A stretch of 49,593 nucleotides of DNA. Source: Candidatus Parcubacteria bacterium (lineage in GTDB: Bacteria > Patescibacteriota > Patescibacteriia > Patescibacteriales > UBA12075). Below, piece by piece: positions 6,182-49,593 of the stretch (within the stretch, counting starts at the first letter, position 1; each line of letters starts with the position of its first letter). Location: contig PKTK01000011.1 in assembly GCA_002869165.1 (NCBI GenBank), forward strand, positions 1-49,593. Direction: 5' to 3'. Both the position numbers and the translations under genes were made by a program. A model generated the notes under the pieces. That model did no database searches, was not told the DNA's origin, and saw only the letters and a program-made list of their open reading frames with translations.

Positions 6182-6220
6182 TTCATCATAAGCATAAATA
6201 TTAAATACATACTGAGTATT

Positions 6221-12655: not shown

Positions 12656-12663
12656 ATTATCAA

Positions 12664-12761
12664 TGTCATTGCGAACGTAGCGAAGCGAGGTGAAGCAATC
12701 TCAATTAAATGCACTCGACAGAGATTGCCACGTCGTCGCTTCTCTCCTCCTCGCAATGACA
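12664..12761. repeat. REP/MITE-like palindromic element (TGTCATTGCGA...GCAATCTC / GAGATTGC...TCGCAATGACA)
   Basis: Terminal and internal inverted repeats; related TGTCATT...AATGACA elements at about 20454-20480, 20595-20698 and 38524-38587. Confidence 0.75.
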
Positions 12762-12771
12762 AAGGTTTATA

Positions 12772-15700
12772 TTATTCTCCTCCGTCATCATTTCTCCATC
12801 TATAATGAATCTGTTCTACATAAACCAATTTAGTCTGGTAAAAATCTAGATACGTATCAAAGTCCTCAACTGCACTGTCATTCGTAGTATACAATTCTGC
12901 ATCATAATCAACACTAGTTGATGCAAAAGTATTAGCAAATATCAAATTAAAATTTAGTGTACAAGAATTGTCAGCACAAACTGATGAACTAGACGGACCA
13001 ACGCTCACAGCACTATTTATATCTGTACCAGTTTCAGTAAAAGTATCTTCTGATTGACTCCAAGTGAATTCCAGATCAGAAAATGGCGTATTGTAATCAT
13101 TGTCATCAGCAAGTCTAAGCACCACTTCATCAAGTACAGCATATCCATTTGCCTCACTTACAACTGCTTGAAAATTATATTCTGTTACTGCGTCCAGAAC
13201 CAACCAATTGCTAGTCACAGGATTAGTTAAGGTTAAAGAAACGTTGTTTACCGAACCATTGGTCTTGACTGTTATTTCCTGAGCGCTACTTGCATGGCCA
13301 AATAGATCATATGCCCAGATATTTATCACGTAATCAGTACTAGGAATAAGCCCTTCCAGAGTGGTTGACCCTGCGCCATTATAATCAATTAGCCCCAAAC
13401 TTGGATCACCTGGAATTGTTGATGAACTAAACTCTATATTTGCCTCTGTCACTCCACTTATTCCTTCTTTGTAATGAATATCGTAATGAGAAAAATTCGT
13501 ATCACTTGAAGCATTGCCAAATGCAAGCGTTATGGTAGAAGTACTTTTTGATTCCACTATTAGATTACCAGGTGCAGTTGGATCAACATTATCAAGCACC
13601 AATGTGGTAGTTGCTGGATTATTCTGATCATCGATCAAGTCATTGGCTGTAAGACGAAGGCAATAAGTATCATCAGCATTTGGCAGATCATTCACAGTAT
13701 CCCAATCAAAAGAAACAGTGTTTGTAGCTGGGGTCAATATATAACCATTTGCATTACCAATTTGATAATCATTATCATTTTCAATTGACACCACACCATA
13801 AGAGGTCCCGATATTTGCAGACGTCTCATCAAGCAAAGGATCAAGCCCGCCTGCCCCAAAGCTACAATCAGCGCCTTGCACATATTCAAGTTTGGCAATT
13901 GCGAAAGCGTTTGCAGTATCTAGATCATCAACATCAATTGAAATATCAACCACGCCCGAGCCATCTGTTTTTTGCGTAGCTGGACTAGCACTTGTAAAAA
14001 TAGCTGTAGGGGCTTTATTTGTTTTGTATGAAAAAACCGTAGAACTAGACACATGACCATATTCATCATAAGCAAACATTGAAAAATAATAAGTAACATT
14101 TTCTAAAAGACCTAAAATAGTAGTTGTTGCCTCGCTATTAAACAAAACATTATTCAAATTAATATCTGATTTTGAGGCATGCATATAGTCAAGCTCATCA
14201 ATATCTGAAGAAGTTGCGTAATATATCCTATATTCTAAGAAATGCATATCACTTGAGGTAGCACCATAATACAAAGTAACACTTTCCTTAGTAGAACTTG
14301 CTCCCACGAAAGTTCCTGGTGCGCTAGGAGCTTTATTGTCGATTGTTAAAGTGGTGGTGGCTGGGCTCGCATCAACATTATCTCCGTCAGTTGCTGTTAA
14401 CTGCAAACAATAATCACCTTCCGTGTCACTCGTATCAAGTGCGCTCAACCAGTCAAAATTAACTGTTGAAGTTCCTCCACTCATAGTAATATAACCTGTA
14501 GATGTTCCAATTTGATATATTTGATTATTATCAATATCAGCATCCCCTGGACTAGAAGTAGCATTAGCATCAGTCTCGTCTAAAGTCGGGTCAAGTGGGG
14601 TTGAAAAATCGCAAGTATTTCCTGGTACATAGTCAAGCCTTGCTCTTGAGTTATCATTGTCCTCATCATAAACCTTGACAGTAATATCAACCACGCCACT
14701 ATCGTCCTTTCTCTGCAAGACAGAGATAAATTCTGAATCTGGAGGATTGTTTGGAGTATAATCAACCCTTATATATATCTGATCAATATATAGATTATTA
14801 GGAGTAGAGTTTGATGAGTTTCCTCCAAATAAACGCACATCAAGATTGGCAACATCAGCCCAAGTCCAAGTTGTTGGAGCATTAGTACTATTTGTAATAT
14901 CAATATAAAATGGAATGCTGGTGTCTGTATTTTCCATTTCAGTTGCTGTTATTTGATACTGATCTCCAGCGCTTATTCCGCCAAAATAAGGAGTAACATA
15001 AGTTGTTATTGTTGTACCATCTACATAACCTTCAATTCCCACTTCAACCGTATTTATATCACCTCCCAAATTAACTGAGGAATTTATGTTTGATTGAATA
15101 TAATTAGCTGGCTCACCTCCCCCTGTCTTTTTAGGAATCTCTCTATATGCATATGTATCCACTCCATTGTCCCAGGCCCAGGTCGAAGATGCCCAACCCA
15201 CATGGACACCATTAGTAGAAGTGCTTACGATAATAACATCAGAAGCAATCTGCCATTCTCTGGCTTCATGCCACTCAGCAATTTCAAGTGGTCCTAATAA
15301 ATAAAACTCTGGAGAAATATCTGGAGCATCGAAGTTATATACTATTATCAATTCATCTGCAATTTCCAGATCAATATTGGTCCAAGAAATCTCTTTTTCA
15401 TATTCAAAGTCCATTTCTCTAAATTTTGACTTAGGACTAGTGCTTGCCAAAGTATCATTGTAGATTAAATACTCACTGCTAGAAGCTTCTTTTAAATACA
15501 CGGTCTGCGTAGCAATCTCAAAATCAATTGGCACGTAGTCGTAAATATTACCAGAAAAATTTTCATTTGCCTTAATAGTGATAGCCATATCATAATCAGC
15601 CAATGGATAAATTCTGGTTGGACCGACTCTCTCAACGTCATAAGCTACATATTTATCTTTTCTCAAGATGTCGTTTATTGTATAAGTTCCGTTGTCAGTC

Positions 15701-18129
15701 ACGGCTGTTAAGCTCAAGTTATATTCACCAAACTCATCCATGATATAAAAAGCATAATAATCAGGATCGTCCATAACCTTTTCAGGAACACATTCAGGAT
15801 TTCTGGCTAATAAACCATTATCAGTTGAAAGGACTGAAGTAATGCCAGTAGGAGAAGTTATCTCCAGGCTCAATTCAGCTTCGCACAAAGTATGTCCATA
15901 GTCATCAAGTACGGCCATTTGCAGATAAGCAGTATCATCATCAGGGCCATATATAGACTTATTGGCGTTGATCGCCAAAACTCCCCAAGAAAAATTCTGT
16001 CCAATATCAATAGTCTGCTCATCACCACTAGATAGATCTGAAATAGTAAAGACTAGTTTATATTTACCTGGTTTATAACCTCGAGGCATATATGGAAGAC
16101 GGATCTCAAAGTTACCATCCTCCTCAAAGATCATAGAAAGTGGTAAATCCAAAAAATTACCTTCCATATCTTGTAAACTCACGTTAATATCAATATCTTC
16201 CCAATAACTAGCTAGTCCAAACATCTCCCCCACACTATCAAGTAGAGCTTGTCTATTTTTTAAATAATGAAATTTAAGTACACCTTGTTCATTCATGGCA
16301 AAATCAAGCTTATTAGAAACCAAACTCAAAGCTTTTTCCCACTCTTTTCTCTCATTTATTTTCTTTACTGTATCACTGGGTTCATATTCAGCTTCTACCC
16401 AGACGCCATCAATGTAAGCGATGTATTCGTTTTGCGCATCAATTGCTTCCACTCTAAGTTGTAAATTCTCAATGTCTTCCCAATTACTTAAAAACGAAGC
16501 ATCAAAACTAAAATAGCCATCACTCAACGCATTCACTACTAAATCATCACTAAGAGTATCCAATTTATGCCACACCACGTCATCAGCCATACCAGTAGTA
16601 GAGGAAATACCATACCAAATTATTAATTTTGCTTCACCCAAAATACTACTCTGCGCTTGGGCTTTTTTTATAAATTGAAATAAACTTATTTCTTCGGTTT
16701 CTACACTTTCTTCACTAAAATTTTCCTCTATTTCAATAACTTCTTCTACCTCTTCCACAGTTTCAACAGAAGCTTCAATAATTTCATCTTCTTCTTCAAC
16801 AATAACCTCTGCTTCCTCTTCTGCTCCTTCAGTAATCTCTACACTAATTCCCTCCGTTTTTGCATCTGCCATTCCAGCCTCAAGTACTTCTAGATCATCT
16901 TCCTTTAATTTTAGTTCCAAATCATCTGTGTTTATAGAGTCTTCATCAAATACTAATTCAGTGTCCTTATTTTGAGAAATAATTTCTTCCTCTTCTTCTA
17001 TCACAATCTGTTCTTCTTGATTAATATCATCAACACTTGTAACTGTATTGCTTTCTGGTTCAGTTTCTACCCCTAAAACTTGCATTGCCATGGAAAGTTT
17101 GATGCTAGCACTCTTAAAAACGCCTAAATCACTTAAACTTATAGCTCCTTCACTTACCATTTCAATTGCTTTAGCTTCAGTTGTTCCCCAAATATTATCA
17201 AAAGTATCTAAAAATCCTAGATCCAAAATTTCCTCAGCTTCTGCTGGTGTTTCTTCTAGCTCCTCTAGACTAGCTTCATCTTCCTCAATTATTTCAATTT
17301 CTATATTATCTTGGGAATCAAATTCTTGTAAATTTTCATCACTTTCAATATTCAAAGGCTCCAAACCCTCATCTGTGTTTTCTTCAATAAAAATATCTTC
17401 TTCATTTATAAAATCATTAACAATATCTCCATCAGTTATAACTTCTATTTCATCACTAGATTCATTTTTTTCTAATACTTCAATCTCTTCGTCTGTAATT
17501 GTTTTGATGTCATTAGTACTAACCACTTCATCTTCAGTAATTGCGCTTGACTCAAATTCTTGGTTACCAGTATTTTCTACATCTGTAATCAACTCCACAC
17601 TAGCATCAATCGTAGCAGTTTCTTCTATAGTCTCCTCTTCTTCTCTTATCAATTCTTCATCTACCTCTTCTTCTGAAGAAAATACGCCTAAATCTTCTTC
17701 TAAAAATCTAAAACCAGAAAAACTAAGGCTAAAATTACCACCAGTATAAAAGGCTGAGTTACCATCATTAAAATCTACCAAATTACCATCCTCTGGAATC
17801 TGCGGAGCAAAAGTGGCGAAATCCATATTCCACCAACCTTCTTCAAAAGACTCAGCTTCCTTGTCTTGAATTGCAGAGCTGGCATAAAGTTTAATGGTTT
17901 CAGTTTTGGTGTAATTAGCTTTTAAGGTATTTATGATAATTTCTAGAGGAGAAAAACCAAAAAGCATCAAAAATACAAAAACCCCAACAAAAAGCAAAGA
18001 CCAGCTAAAAAATCTATTTTTCAGCTGGCTGTTTTTGCTCTCTGTTTTACCAAATTTTAAACCAAATTTAGTATTCTTTGAGCACAATATCTGGTTGTGC
18101 TTATTTAATTGCATGGGGATGCTATTCAA
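12772..18129 (-). CDS. Giant membrane-anchored surface protein (1785 aa) with acidic low-complexity region and FN3-like repeats; paralog of the downstream giant protein
   Basis: N-terminal TM helix, E/D-rich stretch, shared FSWGVLA.N..K...AYLQMAVL...GHTLC module and FN3-like repeats. Confidence 0.85.
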   Translation of the reverse strand: MNSIPMQLNKHNQILCSKNTKFGLKFGKTESKNSQLKNRFFSWSLLFVGVFVFLMLFGFSPLEIIINTLKANYTKTETIKLYASSAIQDKEAESFEEGWWNMDFATFAPQIPEDGNLVDFNDGNSAFYTGGNFSLSFSGFRFLEEDLGVFSSEEEVDEELIREEEETIEETATIDASVELITDVENTGNQEFESSAITEDEVVSTNDIKTITDEEIEVLEKNESSDEIEVITDGDIVNDFINEEDIFIEENTDEGLEPLNIESDENLQEFDSQDNIEIEIIEEDEASLEELEETPAEAEEILDLGFLDTFDNIWGTTEAKAIEMVSEGAISLSDLGVFKSASIKLSMAMQVLGVETEPESNTVTSVDDINQEEQIVIEEEEEIISQNKDTELVFDEDSINTDDLELKLKEDDLEVLEAGMADAKTEGISVEITEGAEEEAEVIVEEEDEIIEASVETVEEVEEVIEIEENFSEESVETEEISLFQFIKKAQAQSSILGEAKLIIWYGISSTTGMADDVVWHKLDTLSDDLVVNALSDGYFSFDASFLSNWEDIENLQLRVEAIDAQNEYIAYIDGVWVEAEYEPSDTVKKINERKEWEKALSLVSNKLDFAMNEQGVLKFHYLKNRQALLDSVGEMFGLASYWEDIDINVSLQDMEGNFLDLPLSMIFEEDGNFEIRLPYMPRGYKPGKYKLVFTISDLSSGDEQTIDIGQNFSWGVLAINANKSIYGPDDDTAYLQMAVLDDYGHTLCEAELSLEITSPTGITSVLSTDNGLLARNPECVPEKVMDDPDYYAFYIMDEFGEYNLSLTAVTDNGTYTINDILRKDKYVAYDVERVGPTRIYPLADYDMAITIKANENFSGNIYDYVPIDFEIATQTVYLKEASSSEYLIYNDTLASTSPKSKFREMDFEYEKEISWTNIDLEIADELIIVYNFDAPDISPEFYLLGPLEIAEWHEAREWQIASDVIIVSTSTNGVHVGWASSTWAWDNGVDTYAYREIPKKTGGGEPANYIQSNINSSVNLGGDINTVEVGIEGYVDGTTITTYVTPYFGGISAGDQYQITATEMENTDTSIPFYIDITNSTNAPTTWTWADVANLDVRLFGGNSSNSTPNNLYIDQIYIRVDYTPNNPPDSEFISVLQRKDDSGVVDITVKVYDEDNDNSRARLDYVPGNTCDFSTPLDPTLDETDANATSSPGDADIDNNQIYQIGTSTGYITMSGGTSTVNFDWLSALDTSDTEGDYCLQLTATDGDNVDASPATTTLTIDNKAPSAPGTFVGASSTKESVTLYYGATSSDMHFLEYRIYYATSSDIDELDYMHASKSDINLNNVLFNSEATTTILGLLENVTYYFSMFAYDEYGHVSSSTVFSYKTNKAPTAIFTSASPATQKTDGSGVVDISIDVDDLDTANAFAIAKLEYVQGADCSFGAGGLDPLLDETSANIGTSYGVVSIENDNDYQIGNANGYILTPATNTVSFDWDTVNDLPNADDTYCLRLTANDLIDDQNNPATTTLVLDNVDPTAPGNLIVESKSTSTITLAFGNASSDTNFSHYDIHYKEGISGVTEANIEFSSSTIPGDPSLGLIDYNGAGSTTLEGLIPSTDYVINIWAYDLFGHASSAQEITVKTNGSVNNVSLTLTNPVTSNWLVLDAVTEYNFQAVVSEANGYAVLDEVVLRLADDNDYNTPFSDLEFTWSQSEDTFTETGTDINSAVSVGPSSSSVCADNSCTLNFNLIFANTFASTSVDYDAELYTTNDSAVEDFDTYLDFYQTKLVYVEQIHYRWRNDDGGE

Positions 18130-25436: not shown

Positions 25437-26300
25437 TCATAACAAATCCTCTATTTCCTGCAAACTCTTACTTGCCACCTTAGTATAAACTTGAGTAGTT
25501 TCAAGTCTAGCGTGCCCAAGCAGAGATTGAATATATCTAAGATTTACGTTGTTCTCAAGCAAATGAGTAGCAAAAGTATGACGAAGAGTATGAGCTGAAA
25601 CATTTTTATTAATTCCCGCTCTACTAGAAGCTTCAGTAACTACTTTTTGAATAGATCTCACGCTCATCCTCTTACCAGCTGATAATGACTCAAATAAATA
25701 TTTCAAAGGTTTATATTCCAGTAAATATTTATGAACATTCTCTAAAACAATCTCTGAAATTATAGTATTTCTATCCTTCTTCCCCTTCCCTTGTTTAACT
25801 AATATCATTTTCCGATCAAAATCTACATGATCAATCCTTAAGTCTTTCAACTCAGAAACACGAAGCCCAGAACAATATAATATCTGAATCATAAGCTTAT
25901 GTTTAATATTTTCACAAACCTTTATCATTCTAACAATTTCTTGTTTATACAAAACAATTTGAAGTTTTTTGTCACTTTTTGGTCTTTTAATATCGGATGC
26001 ACCATTAAGTATTCTCCTTTTTAAAATTCCTTGATAATAATATTTTAAAGAATTAATAACCAAATTTATTGTCGCACTTGATTTTCCGCTGTCTACTAAA
26101 TATTCTAAATAGTCTTTTATATCAGAAGATGTTATTTCCTTTGGTGACTTATAATTTGCAAATCTTAGCATATCTTTGTTATAATAAAGATAAGATTTTA
26201 TTGTTTTGCTAGAGAATCTAGATATTTTCATGTTCTGCTCCAAATTCCGCATCGGATCACGATCATCAGTTGTAGTTCTAGAAAGATTAGATGTATTCAT
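25437..26300 (-). CDS. Tyrosine recombinase/integrase, integron-integrase-like but without the IntI-specific insertion
   Basis: N-terminal SAM-like domain; catalytic GLRVSE, KGKKDR, HTLRHTFATH, LLGH, TTQVY; KDR to YLFES spacing too short for the I2 insertion; diverges from the cassette array. Confidence 0.92.
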   Translation of the reverse strand: MNTSNLSRTTTDDRDPMRNLEQNMKISRFSSKTIKSYLYYNKDMLRFANYKSPKEITSSDIKDYLEYLVDSGKSSATINLVINSLKYYYQGILKRRILNGASDIKRPKSDKKLQIVLYKQEIVRMIKVCENIKHKLMIQILYCSGLRVSELKDLRIDHVDFDRKMILVKQGKGKKDRNTIISEIVLENVHKYLLEYKPLKYLFESLSAGKRMSVRSIQKVVTEASSRAGINKNVSAHTLRHTFATHLLENNVNLRYIQSLLGHARLETTQVYTKVASKSLQEIEDLL

Positions 26301-40300: not shown

Positions 40301-42427
40301 TTAAGCCATTGCTTGAATAAGTTCTCTTTCTATATTTTCCGCTAATCCCTCCTCAATCACTTGTTCTTTGATAGTTTTGATCTCTAATTCCTTTTTTTCT
40401 CCTTCTTCACTAAAACCATTCTCTTGATCACACTTAGGACAGTATTTATGTTCACCTGGTAGATAGCCATGCTTAGGGCAAATAGAAAATGTTGGTGTAA
40501 TAGTAAAATATGGCAAGTGATAACTCTCACAGATTGTTTTGACTAATTTTTTACAAGATTCTGTGTCTTTAATTCTTTCACCAATAAATCCGTGCAAAAC
40601 TGTACCTCCTGTATATTTAGTCTGTAAATTATCCTGAAGCTCCAAAGCTTCAAAGATATCATCAGTAAAACCAACCGGCAAATGAGTTGAATTGGTATAA
40701 TATGGATCAACTCCTTGCTCTTCAACTAGATCATTGTTAGCTACAATTATATCTGGGTATAATTCCTTGTCCTTTTTGGCAAATCTATAAGTTGCTCCTT
40801 CGGCTGGACTAGCTTCTAAATTGTAAAGATTGTTTGTTTCGTTTTGGTAATCCATGAGTCTTTCTCTCATAAAATCCAACACCTCTTCGGCAAACTCTTT
40901 GCCTTCCTGACTAGAAATATCTTTACCCAAGAAATTCTTTACTCCCTCATTCACACCATTCAAACCAATTGTATTGAAATGGTTCTGCCAGTATGTGCCG
41001 AATCTCTCGTAAATATCTGATAAATAATATTTTGAATATGGATAAAGTCCGTCTTCAGAATATTTTTCAATAATTTTTCTCTTGATCTCTAGACTCTCTT
41101 TAGCTAGGTCCATTAATTTAATAATCCTTTCTTTAAATTCTTCTTTACTCTTTGCTAAATAACCGATTCGAGATATATTCAGAGTTACTACTCCTAGACT
41201 TCCAGTTAAAGGATTGGCGCCGAATAGACCACCGCCTCTTTTTCTAAGTTCCCTATTATCAAGTCTAAGTCGACAACACATAGATCTAGCATCATCTCTG
41301 TCCATGTCAGAATTAATGAAATTTGAAAAATATGGAATGCCGTATTTAGCGGTCATCTCCCAAACGGGCTTTAGTGCTTCTCTGTCCCAATCAAAATCCT
41401 TGTCAATTGAATAAGTGGGAATTGGAAAAGAAAATATTCTACCAGTTGAATCGCCTTCGATCATAACCTCGGCAAAAGCCTTATTAAACATGTCCATTTC
41501 ATTTTGAAAGTCCTTGTACCTTTCCTTCATTGGCTGACCACCAATGATCACACTCTCTTCGCCAATCATTTTTGATGGTGTAACATCCAAAGAGATGTTG
41601 GTAAATGGTGTTTGAAAACCGACTCTGGTAGGAACATTTACATTAAACACAAATTCTTGAATTGCTTGTTTTACTTCCTTGTAGCTTAAGTTGTCGTATT
41701 TAATAAATGGTGCTAGATATGTATCAAAATTGGCAAATGCTTGCGCACCAGCTGCTTCGCCTTGTAGTGTATAAAGAAAATTTACCACCTGCCCAAGAGC
41801 AGATCTAAAATGCTTAGGTGGTTTTGACTGGGTCTTTTCACCTACTCCCCCAAAACCTTTCATAAGTAAGGCCTTCAAATCCCAGCCACAACAATATGGT
41901 GCCAACATTCCTAGGTCATGTAAATGAAAATCGCCATTTACATGAGCATTTCTAATTTCTTGAGGGTACAGCTTGTTTAACCAATACTTAGCTGATACAG
42001 CTGAAGCAATGTAATTATTTAAACCTTGTACAGAAAAACTCATATTGGAATTCTCCTTGAGTCGCCAATCAGCCCTACCAAGATAATCAAGCATGAGCTT
42101 CTCTTCCATGTTTTCATCATTTAGCTCTCTTAATTGTCTATGTTGATCTCTGTATAATATGTATGCTTTTGCTATTTTTGTGTGTTTACTTTCAATTAAT
42201 ACCTTTTCTACAATGTCTTGTACTTCTTCAACTGCTGGAATACTCCTACGATGAAATTTTTCATTAAGTCTTTTTTCAATTTCGTCGGTAAGCTTTTCAG
42301 CTAAAGGCATGTTTTTTCTGTCAACTGCTTTGGTTGTTTTGTAAATAGCATCTACAATTTTGTTTTTATCAAAATCTACTATTTCTCCTGATCTTTTTAT
42401 TATTTTTTTTACTGTTTCTTTTGGCAT
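40301..42427 (-). CDS. nrdD: Class III anaerobic ribonucleoside-triphosphate reductase with ATP cone, lacking the C-terminal glycyl-radical motif
   Basis: ATP cone IIKRSG...FDK.KI, HLHDL..YCCGW, SMCCRL, YYTNST, YTGGTVLH, CPKHG...CPKC. Confidence 0.95.
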   Translation of the reverse strand: MPKETVKKIIKRSGEIVDFDKNKIVDAIYKTTKAVDRKNMPLAEKLTDEIEKRLNEKFHRRSIPAVEEVQDIVEKVLIESKHTKIAKAYILYRDQHRQLRELNDENMEEKLMLDYLGRADWRLKENSNMSFSVQGLNNYIASAVSAKYWLNKLYPQEIRNAHVNGDFHLHDLGMLAPYCCGWDLKALLMKGFGGVGEKTQSKPPKHFRSALGQVVNFLYTLQGEAAGAQAFANFDTYLAPFIKYDNLSYKEVKQAIQEFVFNVNVPTRVGFQTPFTNISLDVTPSKMIGEESVIIGGQPMKERYKDFQNEMDMFNKAFAEVMIEGDSTGRIFSFPIPTYSIDKDFDWDREALKPVWEMTAKYGIPYFSNFINSDMDRDDARSMCCRLRLDNRELRKRGGGLFGANPLTGSLGVVTLNISRIGYLAKSKEEFKERIIKLMDLAKESLEIKRKIIEKYSEDGLYPYSKYYLSDIYERFGTYWQNHFNTIGLNGVNEGVKNFLGKDISSQEGKEFAEEVLDFMRERLMDYQNETNNLYNLEASPAEGATYRFAKKDKELYPDIIVANNDLVEEQGVDPYYTNSTHLPVGFTDDIFEALELQDNLQTKYTGGTVLHGFIGERIKDTESCKKLVKTICESYHLPYFTITPTFSICPKHGYLPGEHKYCPKCDQENGFSEEGEKKELEIKTIKEQVIEEGLAENIERELIQAMA

Positions 42428-42456
42428 GGGGATATATGAGATAAAAAATTATTAAA

Positions 42457-42933
42457 TTATTTTTTTCCTTGTTTATTCTTTCTTTTGCGAACTAATTTTT
42501 CAAGTTCTTCTTGAAAGGTTTGCACATCTTCAAATGATTCATAAACACTGGCAAATCTAATATATGCAACTTTATCGACTTTTTTAAGCTCTTTCATGAT
42601 GATTTTACCAATTTTTTCGCTCCCCACCTCTGTTTCTCTAAGAGCCTGGATATTTCTTTCTATACCATGAATAAGTTTTTTGAATCCGTCATCAGTAATT
42701 GGTCTTTTTTCTAGAGATTTTTTAACCCCCCTGACAATTTTCTCTCTATCATAGGCTTGCTTTGTTCCATCACTCTTAATAACTGTAAGCTCCATTATTT
42801 CAACTTCTTCATTAGTTGAAAATCGAAAATTACATTTTAAGCACTCTCTTCGCCTACGTATAGAAAAACCATCACTAGAGGCTCTTGAGTCAACCACCTT
42901 TGTATCTTCATTTAAACAGACTGGACACTTCAT
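42457..42933 (-). CDS. nrdR: Transcriptional repressor NrdR
   Basis: MKCPVC...TKVVDSR...IRRRRECLKC.FRFST, ATP cone, VAYIRFASVY. Confidence 0.97.
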   Translation of the reverse strand: MKCPVCLNEDTKVVDSRASSDGFSIRRRRECLKCNFRFSTNEEVEIMELTVIKSDGTKQAYDREKIVRGVKKSLEKRPITDDGFKKLIHGIERNIQALRETEVGSEKIGKIIMKELKKVDKVAYIRFASVYESFEDVQTFQEELEKLVRKRKNKQGKK

Positions 42934-43069
42934 TTTTTATAATTTTGATGATTAAATAGTAGTAGCTGAGTTTTAAATAAAAAAACACCCGTATTGCTTG
43001 CGTTTACTTGTAAAGGAGGCAAGAAAAGGTGTTTAGGTAAAATTCGCTATTTCTGATATTTTTATTAAA

Positions 43070-43124
43070 CCACTATATTTTGTGTTACCTATTATCATTA
43101 TACCACAACATGTAGTAAAGTCAA
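43070..43124 (-). promoter_or_regulatory. nrdR-nrdD promoter with two NrdR boxes
   Basis: TTGACT(43124)-16-TATAAT(43102); boxes CCACTATATTTTGTGT (43070-43085) and CCACAACATGTAGTAA (43103-43118) resemble acaCwAtATaTwGtgt. Confidence 0.75.
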
Positions 43125-43415
43125 TGGGTTCTAATGTGGCTTATATTAGTGTAGCGGATTTTTTTCATCCTCTATAGTTTAAAAATAACACAATAAATAA
43201 TTAATGCAATAGCAATTTGCATGTGGAAAAGTGGATAGCGGTGGATAACTTGTTTCACGTTTCTTGGATCTACAAATTTCTTTATTTTTTATACTTTAAA
43301 TGTTATATTTGAATGGTAAACATGCTTCAGTTTTTAATTTTTAATTTGTAATTTATAATTAAAAATTAAATATTAAAAATTGTTTACAAATAATAAATTA
43401 CAAATTATAAATTCA

Positions 43416-44693
43416 ATGAAAATTGTCGCTGATTTCCACATACATTCAAAATATTCTCGAGCTTGTTCAAAAATTCTTGAACTTAATAATATTGAGACTA
43501 CCTGCAGACAAAAAGGCATCCAACTCATTGGAACTGGAGATTTTACCTACCCTGCTTGGCAAAAATCTATTGAAAACGAACTAGAAGAAATAGCCAATAC
43601 AGGACTTTTTAAACTAAAAGAAGCACTAGATGATCAAGTGAGGTTTATTTTAACTACTGAAGTATCCCTGGTTTACAAAAAAAATGATAAATGTAGACGT
43701 ATTCATATAGTAATTCATGCACCAAACCTAGAAAGTATCCAAGAACTCAATAAACAGCTTGATAAGGACTATAATATTCGCTCTGATGGCCGGCCAATCC
43801 TCGGTATGAGCACAGAAAAACTCATGAAACTGCTTTTTTCTATTAGTCCTGACTTCTTAGTATATCCAGCACACATCTGGACTCCCTGGTATGCTGTTTT
43901 TGGCTCAAAATCAGGCTTTGATTCTATGAAAGAATGCTTTGGTGACTGGACTGATCATGTTTTTGCCTACGAAACAGGCCTTTCTAGTGATCCTGAGATG
44001 AATTGGCGCTTGTCTGGGCTTGATAAACTAACAATGTTGTCTAATTCTGATGCTCACAGCTTACCCAATCTTGCTCGTGAAGCAAATGTTTTCGAGCTAA
44101 AAGAAGCGAGCTATCAAGAAATAAATCAGGTTATCAAAAATAACGCTAATTCTAGCAATGCTAAAGATAATCAATCTTACCTAGACTACACCATTGAATT
44201 CTACCCTGAAGAAGGTATGTATCATTATGACGGACATCGTTCTTGCGATATTAGCTTGCATCCAGACGAAACTAACAAAAACAAAAAAATTTGTCCCAAA
44301 TGTGGCAAGCCATTAATAATTGGCGTAATGAACAGAGTGGATGAACTAGCTGATAGAAAAGAGGGCTACAAATCTGAGAATAAACCAGGTTTCAAAAAAC
44401 TAGTAGAACTAGACAAAATAATAGCAGAAAGTATAGGAGTAAAATCAAGAAACTCCAAAAAGGTCCAAGAAATCTATCAAAACACCCTAGAAATGCTTAA
44501 TTCCACTGAACTAGATATATTATTAAACGTAAATACTGATGATATAGCTAAAATTAGTGGAAAAACCCTGGCAGAGGGTATAAAAAGAGTCAGAAATGGC
44601 CAGCTACACATAAAACCAGGCTATGATGGGGTTTATGGAGAAGTAAAGATATTTAATGCAGAAGAAATAAAAAACCAAAAACAATTATTTTAG
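43416..44693 (+). CDS. PHP-domain endonuclease Q-like protein
   Basis: ADFHIHSKYSRA, GTGDFT, PAHIWTPW, ETGLSSD, NSDAHS, YHYDGHRSC...CPKCG, PGYDGVYG; likely ATG at 43416. Confidence 0.88.
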   Translation: MKIVADFHIHSKYSRACSKILELNNIETTCRQKGIQLIGTGDFTYPAWQKSIENELEEIANTGLFKLKEALDDQVRFILTTEVSLVYKKNDKCRRIHIVIHAPNLESIQELNKQLDKDYNIRSDGRPILGMSTEKLMKLLFSISPDFLVYPAHIWTPWYAVFGSKSGFDSMKECFGDWTDHVFAYETGLSSDPEMNWRLSGLDKLTMLSNSDAHSLPNLAREANVFELKEASYQEINQVIKNNANSSNAKDNQSYLDYTIEFYPEEGMYHYDGHRSCDISLHPDETNKNKKICPKCGKPLIIGVMNRVDELADRKEGYKSENKPGFKKLVELDKIIAESIGVKSRNSKKVQEIYQNTLEMLNSTELDILLNVNTDDIAKISGKTLAEGIKRVRNGQLHIKPGYDGVYGEVKIFNAEEIKNQKQLF

Positions 44694-44894
44694 CTTATTT
44701 TAAGTAAATAATATAAATATAAAAATTTATTTTTTACTAATATTAGCAAAAAAGAATGATTTTCAACTTGACAAATTTTTTAAATATGATATAATTTAGA
44801 TATAAGAAGTAGCAAATATGCTACTTTTTTGAACAAAAATAAAAATAAATATAAAAATAACATAAAATGAGGGATTTGTGTTATAAACAAACTT

Positions 44895-45197
44895 ATGCCA
44901 AATGAAGCACAATTCATGTCTGCCATAAATAAACCAACTGTTCATGGAAAATATGAAAATCAAGACACCAAAGAAAAAGGAAGTCTTGAAAAAAGAATTG
45001 AAGATAACATGAATAATTTTAGAGAACAATTCGCTACATTTAATGAAGATGAGCCAATTTTAATAAAAGCACAAGAACTTCTAGATGAATTTGGTAGCAG
45101 TAGCAATATTCCAGAATCAGAACTAGATTTTGATAAATCAAATTTTGATGAAGCAAGACTTCTAGGAATGGCAAAAATATTAGAAAATAATCAATAG
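44895..45197 (+). CDS. Hypothetical protein (100 aa)
   Basis: ORF downstream of a TTGACA...TATAAT promoter at about 44768-44795. Confidence 0.6.
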   Translation: MPNEAQFMSAINKPTVHGKYENQDTKEKGSLEKRIEDNMNNFREQFATFNEDEPILIKAQELLDEFGSSSNIPESELDFDKSNFDEARLLGMAKILENNQ

Positions 45198-45219
45198 TCA
45201 TATAATAAGGAGGTAAACA

Positions 45220-45435
45220 GTGACTGATAACAATCTTTCTAATAGATTCGAATCATACAAAGAAAACATTACCCTGTTCCAATTAGCCATTAGACTAATA
45301 AAAGAATATGGGAAAACGGACAAAATCCCGCTTGGAGAGATTAAGCAATCAAATACGGGGTTTTCTGAAGAAGATCTTATTGCCTGTTGTAAACTTGCTG
45401 AAGAAGAAATAATTAAAGAAAAGCTAGTACATTGA
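45220..45435 (+). CDS. Hypothetical protein (71 aa)
   Basis: AAGGAGG RBS before GTG. Confidence 0.6.
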   Translation: MTDNNLSNRFESYKENITLFQLAIRLIKEYGKTDKIPLGEIKQSNTGFSEEDLIACCKLAEEEIIKEKLVH

Positions 45436-45678
45436 TTTATATTGAGCATATTCAAGAAACATGTGAATATGCTCTTTTTTATTAAAAAAATAAAGACCGG
45501 AATTATTGTATCCGGTCTTTTTGAGATTTTGCTTACTCCGTTTTCGAGAGTAAAGTTTTTTGCCTTTTTTATGGCCATGACTCCCGCCTCTTTTATGAAG
45601 GGTTTCCAGAGCTACATTTGGCAGTTTGATCTTTGGGATCTCCTTGTTTTTGCTCCTAATCCTCTTTCTTTTTTTCAT
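45424..45678 (-). CDS. Small basic protein, candidate ArfA/BrfA-like ribosome rescue factor
   Basis: NVALETLH...HKKGKKLYSRKRSK resembles the ArfA KKGKGSYxRK region; intrinsic terminator inside the frame. Confidence 0.5.
   Translation of the reverse strand: MKKRKRIRSKNKEIPKIKLPNVALETLHKRGGSHGHKKGKKLYSRKRSKQNLKKTGYNNSGLYFFNKKEHIHMFLEYAQYKSMY
45484..45522. terminator. Bidirectional intrinsic terminator inside ORF 45424..45678
   Basis: AAAGACCGGA-9nt-TCCGGTCTTT with A/T tracts on both sides. Confidence 0.8.
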
Positions 45679-45687
45679 TTCATCATC

Positions 45688-45906
45688 CTATATTTTACAA
45701 TTTTCACAAAGGTCTCCTTTTGAAGGAGATCCGCATTGACTACAGCCTAACATAATATGACCATATATTCCACTATACTGGCCAATACGTTTTTGAATGA
45801 TGGTACTACGACGAACTTTTCTTTGTTTGTCCTGATAGTGGTAAGACCCTTTAGAACCGCTACATTCCTCTCTACAATACACTCTTGTACATTCTTGGCA
45901 AGCCAT
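45688..45906 (-). CDS. Small Cys-rich (zinc-binding-like) protein
   Basis: CQEC...C...C, CSQC, CENC; GGAGG RBS. Confidence 0.7.
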   Translation of the reverse strand: MACQECTRVYCREECSGSKGSYHYQDKQRKVRRSTIIQKRIGQYSGIYGHIMLGCSQCGSPSKGDLCENCKI

Positions 45907-45999
45907 AGGCTAAATCCTCCAAATTTTATTTTATTTATTTTTCCTTTAATATTTCACTTTTATCAAATGAAATATTAGAGAAAAGCGAAGTTTTCTCAT

Positions 46000-46278
46000 T
46001 TATTCCTCCAAAAAATAAAATTTATCATCTACTTTCAAACAATCCCTCATTCCTTCTATCCAAATAAAAGCTTCTGCGTTCTCATAATAATAATTATCCT
46101 CCTCGACAGTTTCTAGTTTTTTAACGCTTTCTTCTTTAACTACGCAGACTCCACAACAAACTTTTCCCATAAAACTCAATTCTCCTTTTTCCCAAGCATT
46201 AATCAGATCTTTCTTATTTCCCTTGAATTCTACTCCATAACTTGCAAACCCAAATTCTTCATCGATGTAAATTTTCAT
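46000..46278 (-). CDS. Hypothetical acidic protein (92 aa)
   Basis: AAGGAGG RBS; bounded by repeats. Confidence 0.75.
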   Translation of the reverse strand: MKIYIDEEFGFASYGVEFKGNKKDLINAWEKGELSFMGKVCCGVCVVKEESVKKLETVEEDNYYYENAEAFIWIEGMRDCLKVDDKFYFLEE

Positions 46279-46470
46279 AATAGCCTCCTTGGCTTTTGTT
46301 TTTTTGTCTTTAATATTCCCTCTAACATTGCACTTAGTATAAATGAAATATTAGAGAAAAGCGAAGTTTTCTCGTTTTGCTTTTGCTTGATCTTCTCATC
46401 CGGTAACGCTCAAGCAAGCATTACTCTGACCACCCAAGAAGTAGGTGCCTAAAAAGGTAAAGTCAAGCTC

Positions 46471-46764
46471 CTAGACCCTGGTGATCAGAAAAGGAGTAAC
46501 ACCGATCTCGAGAATCTCCTCGATGGTGTACTCTTTTCCGAACTCGAGTCGGCCCTTGGGCTTCAAGGCAAGTGCCTCATCATAGCCCTGGCAGACTCCT
46601 CGAGTCTCGGTCGGATCGACACCGATCGCCTTTACGGTCTGGTGACCGCAAAAGTTCTCAGCGTCTACCGCCCAAGCCCGAGCTTCGTCGAGAGAAATCA
46701 CCTTGGCGGTGAAATTTCCCTCTTCGAGGAGCATAGGAGCAGAAAGAATTGCTTTTCTCGTCAT
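46471..46764 (-). CDS. DUF1874/STIV B116-family protein (AcrIII-1-like cA4 ring nuclease)
   Basis: ISLDEARAW...ENFCGHQT (conserved GH), TR, KGRLEFGKEYTIEEI match the family pattern; GGGAGG RBS; visibly GC-richer than its surroundings. Confidence 0.75.
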   Translation of the reverse strand: MTRKAILSAPMLLEEGNFTAKVISLDEARAWAVDAENFCGHQTVKAIGVDPTETRGVCQGYDEALALKPKGRLEFGKEYTIEEILEIGVTPFLITRV

Positions 46765-46923
46765 AGAGCAAGCCTCCCTTCCTTAATTAATTGTCAAATG
46801 TTTATCAAGGAGTGACAATATCTCCTTCCCTCTAGCATCTCACTACTTATAATGAGATATTAGAGAAAAGCGAAGTTTTTTTAATTTTTTTCTTACTGAA
46901 ATTGTAACAATTTAAAGTGTTTT

Positions 46924-47231
46924 GCTCAGGCCGATTGATAAAGTCGGTTTTTCCATATCGCTATCGAGGCACACTTTAGCCCCGCAATCATTCCGCTCCA
47001 ATGCGAGAGCGAACACGGAGATTTGATTGAACTCCCCAATTACCTCAGAATTTTATTCTTTGGTTTTTGGTCAAGACCGTGGATAAATATATGTTATCAA
47101 TTCATATACCATCCCACACCTAGTTTACAATATCTTTAAAACAATACATTGTTTTAAAGTATTGCTGCTACTACAATGGTACTTAACTGTCACCATTTAT
47201 AGCAGTGCTAGGATTTTCACTATTACAACCC
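46924..47231 (-). ncRNA. Candidate structured ncRNA, copy B
   Basis: No ORF of 60 aa or more on the sense strand; shares ordered sequence blocks with copy A. Confidence 0.6.
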
Positions 47232-47320
47232 AATAGCATTTCACAAATAATTTATGAAATATTATCGAGGGGAGACTTTTTCGATTGTCGAAAAAATCTC
47301 CCTAAAATGTGTTTGAAATA

Positions 47321-47640
47321 GCGGGTCCGATTGATGGTCGGTTTGTGCTTGCCTATTTCTTTTTCTTAACGAGGTCACTTTTTTATCCCCGCAATATCCT
47401 TCCTTTGCTTTATTTAATGGCGCAAAGGATTACAGATGGTTAGTCTGCTTGTTGGTTTGGATCGTGGATGCTCGGATCAAGCACCCCCTTGCTTTTTACA
47501 ATATCCCTTGAGGAAAGGAAATATCGCTTCGGGCTCTACGTGGCCCCTTGGAGGAGATCACTACCCCCAACCCATGGCGAGTTACCAACTCACCCCGAAT
47601 CGCTTACGCGACACTTCCGGACAGTCAGAAGATTTTTGGA
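47321..47640 (-). ncRNA. Candidate structured ncRNA, copy A
   Basis: GC-rich hairpins with minus-strand G-U pairs (GGTGAGT/ACTCGCC, GGGTGCTT/GAGCATCC); homologous to copy B. Confidence 0.6.
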
Positions 47641-47726
47641 TTTCTCCTCTAGCATCTCACTACTTATAATGAGATATTAGAGAAAAGCGAAGTTTTCTCT
47701 CTCTACAAAAGCAAAATCTTGCGGAC

Positions 47727-48086
47727 TTATTCATAGCCTGCTAAACATGATGAACATGCTAAATTCAGCTGGCGATGATTAAGATCACGAAGAAAAACAA
47801 TGTCGATTTTATTTAAAATCGCCTTGTCTTTCACTGTGTACCCATAAGATTTTACTTTGACAATCTTTACACGCTTATACAACATGATATATCTTCTTGC
47901 TTTGCAACAATAGAATTTTTTTTCTACTGGTCCAGAAACTGCAAGCGCAATAAAATAAACTGTGTAAAGCTTGTCTTCAAAACGCATAAAATGATCTTTT
48001 ATCCGTTTTGACTTACCAGGATTTTTTAAGATCCTGGCTTCTGCAACATAAAATGGGATACTTCCTATCTTTTTTGCTTTTTCCAT
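47727..48086 (-). CDS. Hypothetical basic protein (about 119 aa; likely start ATG 48086)
   Basis: AAGGGGGA RBS; the longer upstream start would run through a repeat. Confidence 0.7.
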   Translation of the reverse strand: MEKAKKIGSIPFYVAEARILKNPGKSKRIKDHFMRFEDKLYTVYFIALAVSGPVEKKFYCCKARRYIMLYKRVKIVKVKSYGYTVKDKAILNKIDIVFLRDLNHRQLNLACSSCLAGYE

Positions 48087-48228
48087 TTTTGTCCCCCCTT
48101 TTTTCCTGAACATTCCACTTAGAAAAAGCCTGTTTGAGAAAAGCGAAGTTTTCTCGTATTGCATTGATAGTGTCCGCTTATCAGGCGCCCAGGTGCTTCC
48201 CCTGAGTATTACAGGTCAGTTTATATCC

Positions 48229-48423
48229 TCATGACATAGAGGGTTGTTTTTTAAACAGCTTACGAACCCCCAGACCGAGAAACACATACTTTAGTACAAA
48301 GACTAAAACGAATGTGCTGGCTACGATGTTCGGATCGTAACCTACGAACAGAGCACTATTGCTCATATACGTACCGATCCATTGAACAAGGCCAAGCAGC
48401 AGAAAAATTGCAAAGTATAGCAT
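48229..48423 (-). CDS. Small two-TM membrane protein
   Basis: AGGAG RBS; hydrophobic. Confidence 0.65.
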   Translation of the reverse strand: MLYFAIFLLLGLVQWIGTYMSNSALFVGYDPNIVASTFVLVFVLKYVFLGLGVRKLFKKQPSMS

Positions 48424-48455
48424 TTTAGTCTCCTGTAATATGACATTTATTTGTT

Positions 48456-48622
48456 AATTTCCCAAAACTTCGCAAAGGCTTGTTTTATAAATTGCGCACA
48501 ATAAAACTTCGCGGAAAAATTGTGCTAGATATTGTTTATAGAATCTGGAATGCTAAATTTTTATAATTCATTCCTTGTTTCATACAAGCATATCTTGACC
48601 CTTTGCGAAGTTTTGGGAAATT
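48456..48622. repeat. 167-bp element with perfect 23-bp terminal inverted repeats
   Basis: AATTTCCCAAAACTTCGCAAAGG / CCTTTGCGAAGTTTTGGGAAATT; internal AAAACTTCGC at about 48503. Confidence 0.8.
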
Positions 48623-48977
48623 CCACCCTCACCCCTTGGAAGAATTCTTTTTTAATTCTCACCACCCCTCCATCTCCATTCTTCAAACAAGAAGGAATAG
48701 GAAAGGATGATACTCTTAACAAATAATTCTTCAAAAAGGTGAGGGTATTTAATTGTCAATGAACTTTCCGTTCTGCACGACAAGCATGTTTTCAGGATTA
48801 ATTGTTTTAGAATTTAAACTACTTTTGATAATCTTTTTCTATTGACCTTTCCCTTGATTTAATTATTTAGTAGAAAGAATATCTAGAAAATGTTATATAT
48901 TTGTAGTTTTTGTTACCGCAGAGACTTGTGGTCAAAATCCGTAGTTTTTTGCATCAGGCTGTTTAGCTTGATATGTC

Positions 48978-49006
48978 AGTATAGCATACATTTTGAATCT
49001 TGTCAA
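48978..49006 (-). promoter_or_regulatory. Strong sigma70 promoter facing the second array
   Basis: TTGACA-17-TATACT with extended TG. Confidence 0.7.
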
Positions 49007-49139
49007 GACTTTCTAACACATTTTTCTATATAATGGCACTATTTATTTAATATTAGATAAATATTTATGTTATTATATGTTAATGAAATATTACATAATC
49101 AATAAAAACAAAAAAATACCTACTTTTTGTTGGCAGGTA

Positions 49140-49168
49140 TTGACAAATAATTAAATATATGATATAAT
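49140..49168 (+). promoter_or_regulatory. Consensus sigma70 promoter
   Basis: TTGACA-17-TATAAT with extended TG. Confidence 0.75.
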
Positions 49169-49220
49169 GATATATCGAACCTTAAAAAGCAATTTTACAT
49201 TAATTTCCACAGGAGATATC

Positions 49221-49436
49221 ATGAGCAAATGTATCAAATTTTTCATTGGAACCCCGAAGAGAGCACTAGTTTCAATTATATTTGTAGCAGCAATCATCCT
49301 GCTTGACAAAGCGGGGTTAGCAGCGCCGATGATTGATCGGCTTATGCAAGAAACCATCGGTCGTTTCATGGGACCTGTGGTTACAATCGTAGTTCTGATT
49401 GTAATTTTCAGAACAATTCTTGGTGGAAGAAAATAA
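49221..49436 (+). CDS. Small two-TM membrane protein (71 aa)
   Basis: AGGAG RBS before ATG 49221; downstream of the consensus promoter. Confidence 0.65.
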   Translation: MSKCIKFFIGTPKRALVSIIFVAAIILLDKAGLAAPMIDRLMQETIGRFMGPVVTIVVLIVIFRTILGGRK

Positions 49437-49593
49437 CACAGTTAAACCTATAACCAGGAGGTGAGCCATGGGTGGCTAACTAACACCGAAAGGTAAACCA
49501 GTCCCAGAAGTCTTGGGACTGGAACCTAGTAGGAGTTAGAACATCTCATAACATAAGAAGGAGAGACAACAGTGAACGGCTAGAATGTCAAAC

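Follow-up and report, generated by a model that had tools for sequence, protein, structure and literature searches.

How does a small gene rich in guanine and cytosine (GC), which resembles those of viral anti-CRISPR ring nucleases, come to lie in the chromosome of a bacterium of the candidate phyla radiation (CPR), and what could its product do there? The question is raised by contig PKTK01000011.1 (positions 1 to 49,593, forward strand) of the Candidatus Parcubacteria bacterium assembly GCA_002869165.1. This contig, C11 of a 1.43-Mb assembly, was analyzed over its whole length of 49,593 nucleotides (nt) and is hereafter called the window; the gene in question is a 97-residue open reading frame (ORF) on its minus strand. 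A first-pass annotation of the same DNA had proposed that this ORF encodes an AcrIII-1-like (DUF1874) protein, i.e., an enzyme degrading cyclic tetra-adenylate (cA4) and blocking the signalling of type III CRISPR systems, that it was recently acquired by a probable CPR genome, and that the small neighbouring ORFs and RNAs are by association candidates for anti-defence functions. We find that this already known family gains a further member with the protein, which belongs to a divergent branch. The account that we favour, and that we hold to be probable as a whole while leaving real room for doubt, is that of a divergent ring nuclease, recently imported, whose gene forms one unit of a five-unit array in which every unit is headed by the same type of hairpin leader.

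Family membership, fold and active site

46471..46764, minus strand: DUF1874/AcrIII-1-like coding sequence, 97 residues (unit C), defined by the ORF, its ATG start, PF08960 and the fold model
46765..46828, minus strand: 5' leader of the DUF1874 gene, defined by reading of the sequence and by alignment

The ORF is real, with an ATG start on the minus strand and a ribosome-binding site, GGGAGG, located 8 nt before it. Its product carries the motifs ISLDEA (residues 23-28), G40-H41, R55, R72 and RLEFGKEYTIEE (72-83), and the residues named beforehand as the pattern of the family are all present. A search of 5.8 billion protein clusters gave 31 candidates, of which 28 proteins have E<=1e-3 (40-84% identity, the protein's own record included). 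In the alignment of these 28 relatives, H41, T43, R72, G76, Y79 and G88 are invariant, and S8, G16, A28, N37, R55, L73, E74, E78 and E83 are conserved in at least 90% of the sequences; H41 and R72 are conserved to at least 90% in a wider set of 36 sequences as well. In view of this alignment, the named residues are not chance features. An exhaustive phmmer search of 1.84 billion representatives yielded, at E<=1e-3, 54 clusters, of which 41 also pass E<=1e-10 and a few are evidently spurious long repeat proteins; with just 54 clusters in such a collection, the branch is therefore small. One relative (P0030) is fused to an HTH_17 domain, and anti-CRISPR genes are often fused with their regulators.

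Regarding the family itself, PF08960 (STIV_B116-like, the former DUF1874) is the sole Pfam match of the protein (E 5.2e-4, profile positions 10-98 of 101); it is found at E<0.01 in 24 of the 28 branch members, and 15 of the 28 bear a precomputed PF08960 label. When a profile of the branch was compared with the PDB, four sequences were matched at E<=1, all of them DUF1874 proteins: AFV3-109 of Acidianus filamentous virus 3 (2j6b, 5.6e-5), ORF114 of Sulfolobus islandicus rod-shaped virus 1 (SIRV1; 2x4i), the cA4 complex of the latter (6scf), and B116 of Sulfolobus turreted icosahedral virus (STIV; 2j85). A broader profile built on the 36 sequences gave five matches, again all DUF1874, with 2j6b at 4.2e-6 over its full length with the GH motifs aligned, and Csx1-Crn2 (8y7f) at E 0.8. 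The structural prediction points in the same direction. Indeed, the AlphaFold model of the protein (predicted local distance difference test, pLDDT, 94.4; predicted template modelling score, pTM, 0.84) has 15 Foldseek matches at E<=1e-3 and, among the matches listed, all are DUF1874 proteins, the next one lying at E ~1; 2j6b, 8y7f/g, 2j85, 6scf and 2x4i are found with E values from 6e-7 to 2e-4. By VIA-align, the model matches 2j6b with Z 10.2 (93 residues aligned, root-mean-square deviation, rmsd, 2.7), 6scf_A with Z 10.1 (94 aligned, rmsd 3.0), 2j85 with Z 9.9, 2x4i and 8y7g with Z 9.2 and 8y7f with Z 9.0, versus Z 2.6 for the best unrelated fold. By this model, the protein has the alpha/beta fold of the DUF1874 family, whose sequence signature it also carries, and, with both profile and fold matches (Z 9-10) in support of the initial assignment, the ORF product is a genuine, divergent member of the DUF1874 (AcrIII-1/Crn2) ring-nuclease family.

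A symmetric homodimer is also predicted, with a score of 0.72 versus 0.01 for the best control. When the tool was calibrated, 20 of 30 proteins with structures solved as same-chain pairs attained this score, as did 1 of 23 proteins solved as single chains. The contacts agree to 100% between the three runs, pLDDT of the partners is at least 90, and the predicted interface consists of residues 9-22, 92, 94 and 97. As DUF1874 dimers have already been solved, this result may show likeness to them and is not independent evidence.

For SIRV1 gp29, H47 is reported as an absolutely conserved general acid whose replacement (H47A) makes the reaction more than 2500-fold slower, R85, carried by a lid loop (residues 82-94), locks the closed dimer, and R66, N8, Q81, S11, T50, S49 and N13 also touch cA4 (10.1101/778746). 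According to equivalences taken from profile alignments, as opposed to residue-level superposition, H47 corresponds to H41, R85 to R72 and S49 to T43, all three being invariant in the branch. H41 belongs to a GH motif aligned with the GH of AFV3-109; R72 aligns with R85 within the R-L-E-x-G-K motif of 2x4i, 6scf and 2j85, and the lid-loop segment RLEFGKEY aligns with RLEEGKIL of gp29. R66 would correspond to R55, transitively via AFV3-109 only. If the protein works as gp29 does, the dimer would shut its lid loop (residues ~69-80, carrying R72) over one cA4 molecule, His41 of each subunit would serve as general acid, and the ring would be cut twice into linear di-adenylates, which would turn off cA4-activated effectors.

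Among known proteins, SIRV1 AcrIII-1 (gp29/ORF114; 2X4I, 6SCF) shares with this one the fold, over 94 of 97 residues, the homodimer (here predicted), the GH catalytic motif and the lid-loop arginine in R-L-E-x-G-K, and both are small and stand-alone and, in the present case probably, borne by mobile DNA; however, identity is 19-23%, the bacterial branch matches it by profile at E 0.03-0.2, its length is 114 residues versus 97 here, three of its ligand contacts are replaced (see below), and its gene is viral whereas the present one lies in a chromosome without detected type III CRISPR. AFV3-109 (2J6B) is the best match both in sequence and in structure, with 26-28% identity and a shared GHQ motif, but it is a crenarchaeal virus protein. 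Crn2, the bacterial form of the family, contains the same domain, present as residues 444-562 of the Csx1-Crn2 fusion of Marinitoga sp. (8Y6Z, 8Y7F, 8Y7G); unlike the protein of the window, in whose genome no CRISPR locus was found, it is located within type III CRISPR effectors or fused to them. In one survey, Crn2 is reported from 7 CRISPR loci versus AcrIII-1 from 36 phage genomes (10.1101/2024.09.24.614671).

Several points weigh against the account given above. The PF08960 score, 20.5 bits, is below the 26-bit gathering cut-off, and neither NCBIfam nor PHROGs gave a usable match for the protein (best PHROGs E 0.23). Three contacts of gp29 with cA4 are replaced (T50 by V44, Q81 by K68, N8 by S8), and S11 and N13 have no placeable counterpart in the profile alignments; as judged from these alignments, the catalytic core appears to be kept and the pocket partly altered. 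In addition, the substrate is not in sight. Searches of the whole genome (95.75% complete) for Cas1, RAMP, Csm1, Cmr2 and Csx1-HEPN found none, with positive controls matched, and neither Cas10 nor type III CRISPR was detected (the Csm6-HEPN control was silent, and CBASS, SAVED and PADLOC families were not searched); a k-mer script found no CRISPR array in the genome either. With no source of cyclic oligoadenylate and no effector found, the enzyme would be without visible substrate here, and the anti-CRISPR role initially ascribed to it has no visible target in this genome, type III CRISPR having been looked for and not detected. Finally, SIRV2 gp37 is described as not being an anti-CRISPR in its native virus-host pair and as inhibiting a lysine methyltransferase, a second function for a member of the family (10.1101/2023.01.10.523387); this case indicates that the fold alone leaves the biological role unsettled.

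These same observations, together with the small size (54 representative clusters) and divergence of the branch, are what speaks for one alternative, namely that the protein has the DUF1874 fold but is no cA4 ring nuclease and binds instead another nucleotide or nucleic acid ligand, or inhibits a host protein. We regard it as unlikely, though it is the strongest of the competing explanations. Indeed, H41 and R72, to which catalysis and the closing of the lid are most directly linked, do not vary in the branch, and neither does T43 at the position of S49; the lid-loop segments align, and the predicted dimer would form the pocket. We favour an active cA4 ring nuclease, which we hold to be fairly probable but by no means certain. 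With its 97 residues and its altered pocket, the protein is a compact variant suited to biochemical comparison.

Origin of the gene and the leader array

The composition of the gene is foreign to its genome. As first noticed from the letters alone, its GC content is higher, 0.534 versus 0.335 for the genome and 0.316-0.359 over the 15 contigs, and its GC at third codon positions (GC3) reaches 0.602 versus 0.23-0.45 in eight neighbouring genes. Searched with the branch profile, 1 of 401 genomes sampled across the phylum contains the family, namely its own. The nearest genomic relative is found in Thermodesulfobacteriota bacterium B35 (locus L006), with 82% identity at the protein level and 79% at the DNA level, the DNA likeness being limited to the coding part. 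In this region of 52-64% GC, the neighbours encode a TraG/TraD-type coupling protein, a single-stranded DNA-binding protein (SSB), a DUF6094 methyltransferase, an SNF2 helicase and an HD protein, a gene content that has the apparent make-up of a conjugative element. YddF of Bacillus subtilis is encoded on a conjugative element, ICEBs1, in a host not known to have type III CRISPR. Its setting resembles that of L006 and arguably that of the window gene. YddF is a bacterial DUF1874 protein that was assayed with cyclic oligoadenylate in the AcrIII-1 study (10.1101/778746). Leading regions of conjugative elements are known to gather anti-defence genes along with SSB and methylases (PMC11541004, which does not mention DUF1874). 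Two IMG/VR contigs carry relatives with 40% identity, and a tblastn search of annotated phage and plasmid collections gave no match to the protein. The window copy is chromosomal, with no recognisable mobile-element genes beside it. Three observations therefore support the idea of a recent acquisition, namely the composition, the lack of the family in 400 other sampled genomes of the phylum, and the 82%-identical relative in a conjugative-element region, and the gene is likely to be a recent import from a GC-rich bacterial mobile element.

The place where it landed is variable. In a DNA search of 42400-49593 against 60 relatives, the matches listed were of four kinds: they concern the genes of NrdR and of the TIGR00375 family (42400-44692), a short repeat that is dispersed, positions 44889-45158 in one genome, and positions 48958-49533 in three; among these matches, and leaving aside 108 weaker ones, none covers 45160-48957. 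In one relative, G018, NrdR (79% amino-acid identity) and the next gene (62%) are 2.4 kb apart versus 6.8 kb here, and in between there are weak matches only, to a lysine-rich (K-rich) gene and to a gene which we call A.

Within this stretch, a 20-nt hairpin, P1 (GAGAAAA-CTTCGC-TTTTCTC on the minus strand), occurs in five copies between 45978 and 48155, four exact and one with 2 mismatches, where 0 are expected by chance. Behind every P1 stands another hairpin, P2, which has 10-16 pairs and whose ends, CTCT...AGAG, are conserved; GGAAAA comes next and, 20-60 nt farther on, a ribosome-binding site with its start codon. The leader, made of P1 and P2, is ~70 nt long, there is one per unit, and all units run in the same direction, in the order (minus strand) r5-gene E, r4-segment D, r3-DUF1874, r2-gene B and r1-gene A with the K-rich gene. 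The five leaders are as follows (bit scores are those of a covariance model, which was run on 121 relatives and on the related loci).

45929..46002, minus strand: leader r1, heads gene A with the K-rich gene and is probably native; 75 bits, folding z -4.7
46305..46378, minus strand: leader r2, heads gene B, ~97 nt past the DUF1874 stop; 80.6 bits, folding z -4.3
46815..46887, minus strand: leader r3, heads DUF1874, P1 with 2 mismatches followed by P2; 73.3 bits, folding z -4.7
47632..47704, minus strand: leader r4, heads the ORF-less segment D; 79 bits, folding z -3.7
48088..48160, minus strand: leader r5, heads gene E, P1 exact and P2 degenerate; 60.3 bits, folding z 0.0

Within the genome, P1 and the leader are confined to these 2.2 kb according to both 20-mer and covariance-model searches. 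Leaders r3 and r4 have an identical stretch of 51 nt in common. Over ten copies of P2, 8 of the 10 pairs are changed on both sides, 87% of cells are paired versus at most 59% with the partners slid, and the observed covariation score was reached in 0 of 500 shuffles; four of these ten copies come from one array and are consequently not independent. Elsewhere, the leader recurs in a few CPR-like contigs. Of 301 genomes of the order, 2 have exact P1; besides the present genome this is G004, whose copy is on a contig that is syntenic but carries other cargo, with 53-58% GC. The exact 20-mer is further found in 7 metagenome stretches and is absent from the viral contigs searched. Four of these stretches (L023, L025, L028 and L029) have the whole leader layout, each with its own P2 sequence, and L023 has two leader copies 482 nt apart; L024 and L027, which have the same sequence, and L026 are GC-rich with P1 only (30-31 bits), and there P1 may be due to chance. 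Covariance-model matches of 28-33 bits in six relatives were unconvincing once aligned, the sole weak match resembling the leader being that of G097 (38 bits), and no K-rich gene was found after the weak matches. In L028, the leader heads a 47-residue gene, a K-rich gene homologue comes second and a dehydrogenase third. This layout looks like the simple, ancestral state of the locus, which leads us to regard r1-A-K-rich as native, whereas units B to E would have been added later under leader copies, either by site-specific capture or by recombination within P1. In our reading, the leader is an expression module, a promoter or 5' leader, that was used again each time a foreign gene was added under it, the array occupying a variable spot of a Parcubacteria-type chromosome with the ring-nuclease gene as one of its five units. 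The evidence for this reading of P1-P2 consists of position and covariation only, and no consensus sigma-70 site was identified when the leader was scanned for promoters.

Could the array rather be integron-like, P1-P2 being a folded recombination site that captures circular cassettes, the DUF1874 gene included? Several features resemble integron cassette arrays: small genes in tandem, all co-directional, each with one repeat; a repeat made of a hairpin with conserved ends and a covarying interior; a 51-nt identity between r3 and r4; cargo that is variable, foreign or without relatives; a syntenic spot of G004 where exact P1 accompanies different GC-rich genes, and the pair of copies in L023. 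However, no integrase adjoins the array, with no ORF matching a recombinase family from 43 kb to the contig end, and the only tyrosine recombinase of the window (25437-26300), 20 kb away, is of XerA type (231 bits for a cut-off of 220, versus 196 bits for integron integrase, whose cut-off is 265). Moreover, no attC R''/R' core words were seen by eye, contigs of two samples show no joins across a unit (only contigs having been available), the repeat stands at a fixed distance before the start codons, with a constant spacing from P2 to the ribosome-binding site as for a 5' leader, and the same leader heads an apparently native operon in L028. Capture of this kind consequently appears improbable to us, more so than the non-nuclease reading of the protein, and we keep the re-used leader as the preferred explanation. 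Promoter-stem-loop (PeSL) cassettes of T4-type phages are another case of tandem small genes framed by a hairpin-bearing repeat. Unlike them, the present array is not in a phage setting and its 20-mer is absent from the viral contigs.

The imported units have a further unusual property: they fold far more strongly than native genes and shuffled controls, and in the sense more than in the antisense orientation. Over 46276-48075, the sense (minus) strand has a mean folding z of -3.5 in 150-nt windows, 12 of 23 being at or below -3, versus a mean of -0.11 (standard deviation 1.26) for 36 control windows in native genes, 1 of which is below -3. The DUF1874 coding sequence has z -6.6 in sense and -3.2 in antisense, and that of gene E has -7.8, genes A and B being at about 0. 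The L006 homologue behaves similarly (-7.4 in sense, -4.3 in antisense), as does its neighbour gene (-5.6; L006 8001-8700 for this region), and the viral relative with 40% identity has -1.2. When the window gene was folded jointly with L006, the consensus of the two sequences had 85 pairs, with 13 one-sided and 2 double changes, which is weak evidence because the method selects compatible pairs.

Around the leaders, other short elements recur. The 10-mer AAAACTTCGC, the core of P1, is found again in a perfect 23-nt inverted repeat (48456-48478 / 48600-48622) whose arms are 121 nt apart, and also ~75 nt before a start codon in the metagenome contig L025; in these genomes, it may serve as a promoter word or for the binding of a factor. 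L025 also contains the word CUGAUGAG. A non-coding block of 78 nt (48166-48242, minus strand) is 82% identical to L025 (oriented 1473-1549) and lies in both contigs just after a small gene and before the AAAACTTCGC word. It forms a hairpin with a GGAAGC loop, whose pairing is kept through two double changes, and ends with CGCCUGAUAAGCGG in the window and CGCCUGAUGAGCGG in L025; it has no Rfam family match. In three loci, a small cysteine-rich (zinc-ribbon-like) protein family is encoded in GC-rich DNA just upstream of the P1-P2 leader (L019, i.e., G004:C111, 629-1319; L025 oriented 380-673; L029 oriented 1212-1610), and L025 and L029 have in common the gene after the leader as well.

Role of the enzyme and integrity of the locus

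What, then, could a ring nuclease do in such a genome? That it is a CPR genome, as surmised at the outset, is consistent with its size of 1.43 Mb and with the fact that ribosomal proteins L30 and L9 had no match in the genome search, the absence of both being typical of CPR and Parcubacteria. As no cA4-making system is detectable in it, the enzyme would most likely be carried-over anti-defence cargo, or act on a signal made elsewhere. With this protein, the AcrIII-1/Crn2 family includes a small branch in bacteria, which is carried by conjugative elements and has arrived in a CPR genome without detected type III CRISPR, a spread which fits the view of ring nucleases as anti-defence cargo.

A housekeeping role, in which a cellular enzyme of Crn2 type would tune the cyclic-oligoadenylate signalling of its own cell, would accord with the chromosomal position of the gene and with its having the same leader type as native neighbour genes. 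It is nevertheless highly unlikely: the composition is foreign, the family was not found in the 400 other genomes of the phylum, and the searches for Cas10, RAMP, Cas1, Csx1-HEPN and CRISPR arrays reported above (CBASS and SAVED not having been searched) gave nothing.

A bolder possibility combines the setting with the enzyme. P1-P2 might be the docking and expression site of an undescribed CPR gene-capture system, either free of integrase or relying on an unknown recombinase, the captured ring nuclease might be used by the episymbiont against the cA4 alarm of its host, and the strong folding might be adaptive. We consider it very doubtful, somewhat less so than the housekeeping role. If it were true, foreign genes would be stacked unit by unit under a shared hairpin leader at a fixed chromosomal spot, an episymbiotic cell could silence the cA4 alarm of the bacterium that it lives on, and the folding would be an adaptation, for instance a resistance of the message to cA4-activated single-strand RNases. 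The setting may outrank the gene in interest: foreign genes unrelated to each other stand, at one variable chromosomal spot, behind a hairpin leader of which the first stem is the same in different genera, the second one being covariant. Such an array allows one to ask how gene-poor CPR bacteria add new genes and express them.

Contamination or misassembly splicing a GC-rich gene into a CPR contig, an idea which could draw on the abrupt 20-point GC jump across ~400 bp, on a contig end less than 3 kb from the locus and on contigs of the probable source run that break at each repeat, can be set aside, since depth in that run is even (28.9 for the pieces with the ring-nuclease gene, 30.1 and 28.1 for the flanks, 26.7-32.6 for the array units, and 47-60, i.e., ~2x, for the repeat pieces), a second sample of the same study contains the locus at 3-5x with a few base differences, in pieces (46288-46524 and 46622-46888) running from the gene into both flanking leaders, and an identical protein is on record on a contig of 158,917 bases. 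With even depth and a second sample in agreement, the ring-nuclease gene is not an assembly chimera.

In runs X1 and X2, no joints across units were seen (in contigs, which could miss rare excision), and run X3 has no cover of the locus. Within 45295-45945, contigs of run X2 end in unlike sequence at 45295, 45490, 45531 and 45945, and the strain of this sample seems to differ around the K-rich gene and gene A. Regarding the contig end, positions 49495-49593 of the window are an exact 99-nt overlap with the end of contig C10 (58945-59043, reversed). This overlap makes the two contigs neighbours in the chromosome, and the synteny of the relative G018 runs on across their join.

Neighbouring genes and other features of the window

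45424..45678, minus strand: K-rich gene, 84 residues, with the word HKRGGSHG, native partner of gene A; homologue in L028 and weak match in G018
45688..45906, minus strand: gene A, 72 residues, cysteine-rich, GGAGG ribosome-binding site, probably native; weak syntenic tblastx match in G018
46000..46278, minus strand: gene B, 92 residues, AAGGAGG ribosome-binding site; GC 0.319, folding z +0.8, no relatives found
46883..47660, minus strand: segment D, 778 nt, no ORF above 40 codons on this strand; folding z -5.5, candidate structured RNA or decayed unit
47727..48086, minus strand: gene E, 119 residues from the methionine behind r5; sense folding z -7.8, no relatives found

The suggestion that the neighbours are anti-defence candidates by association did not find support. 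Genes B and E have no homologue in a search of 5.8 billion clusters (word-indexed and restricted to near lengths, so that distant or fused relatives could escape) and no Pfam, PHROG or NCBIfam match; their ESM Atlas leads are all below threshold (0.75-0.77). Gene A and the K-rich gene look native because of their weak syntenic matches in G018. More generally, PHROGs gave nothing usable for 13 neighbour or relative ORFs.

Segment D is headed by a full leader copy and contains several long perfect hairpins. It belongs to no Rfam family and has no relative in 300 genomes of the class besides one 25-nt match; it could be a gene in decay, a structured RNA, or a region resembling an origin or a single-strand promoter. 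For the whole window, Rfam at gathering scores identified tRNA-Pro only. Over 44500-49593 and six related loci, lowering the threshold to E<=1 brought only chance matches of microRNA type, and no hammerhead or other ribozyme was found by Rfam in the window or the related loci.

Farther from the array, three huge tandem ORFs (1263, 2144 and 1785 residues) with fibronectin type III domains occupy 2390-18129 of the minus strand; next come a pilin-like gene, whose product has a methylation motif at its N-terminus, and ComEC. Ahead of the TIGR00375-family gene lies an element of ~85 nt (43330-43415), which is dispersed in many relatives and occurs at three further places in its own genome, on both strands and with 75-94% identity.

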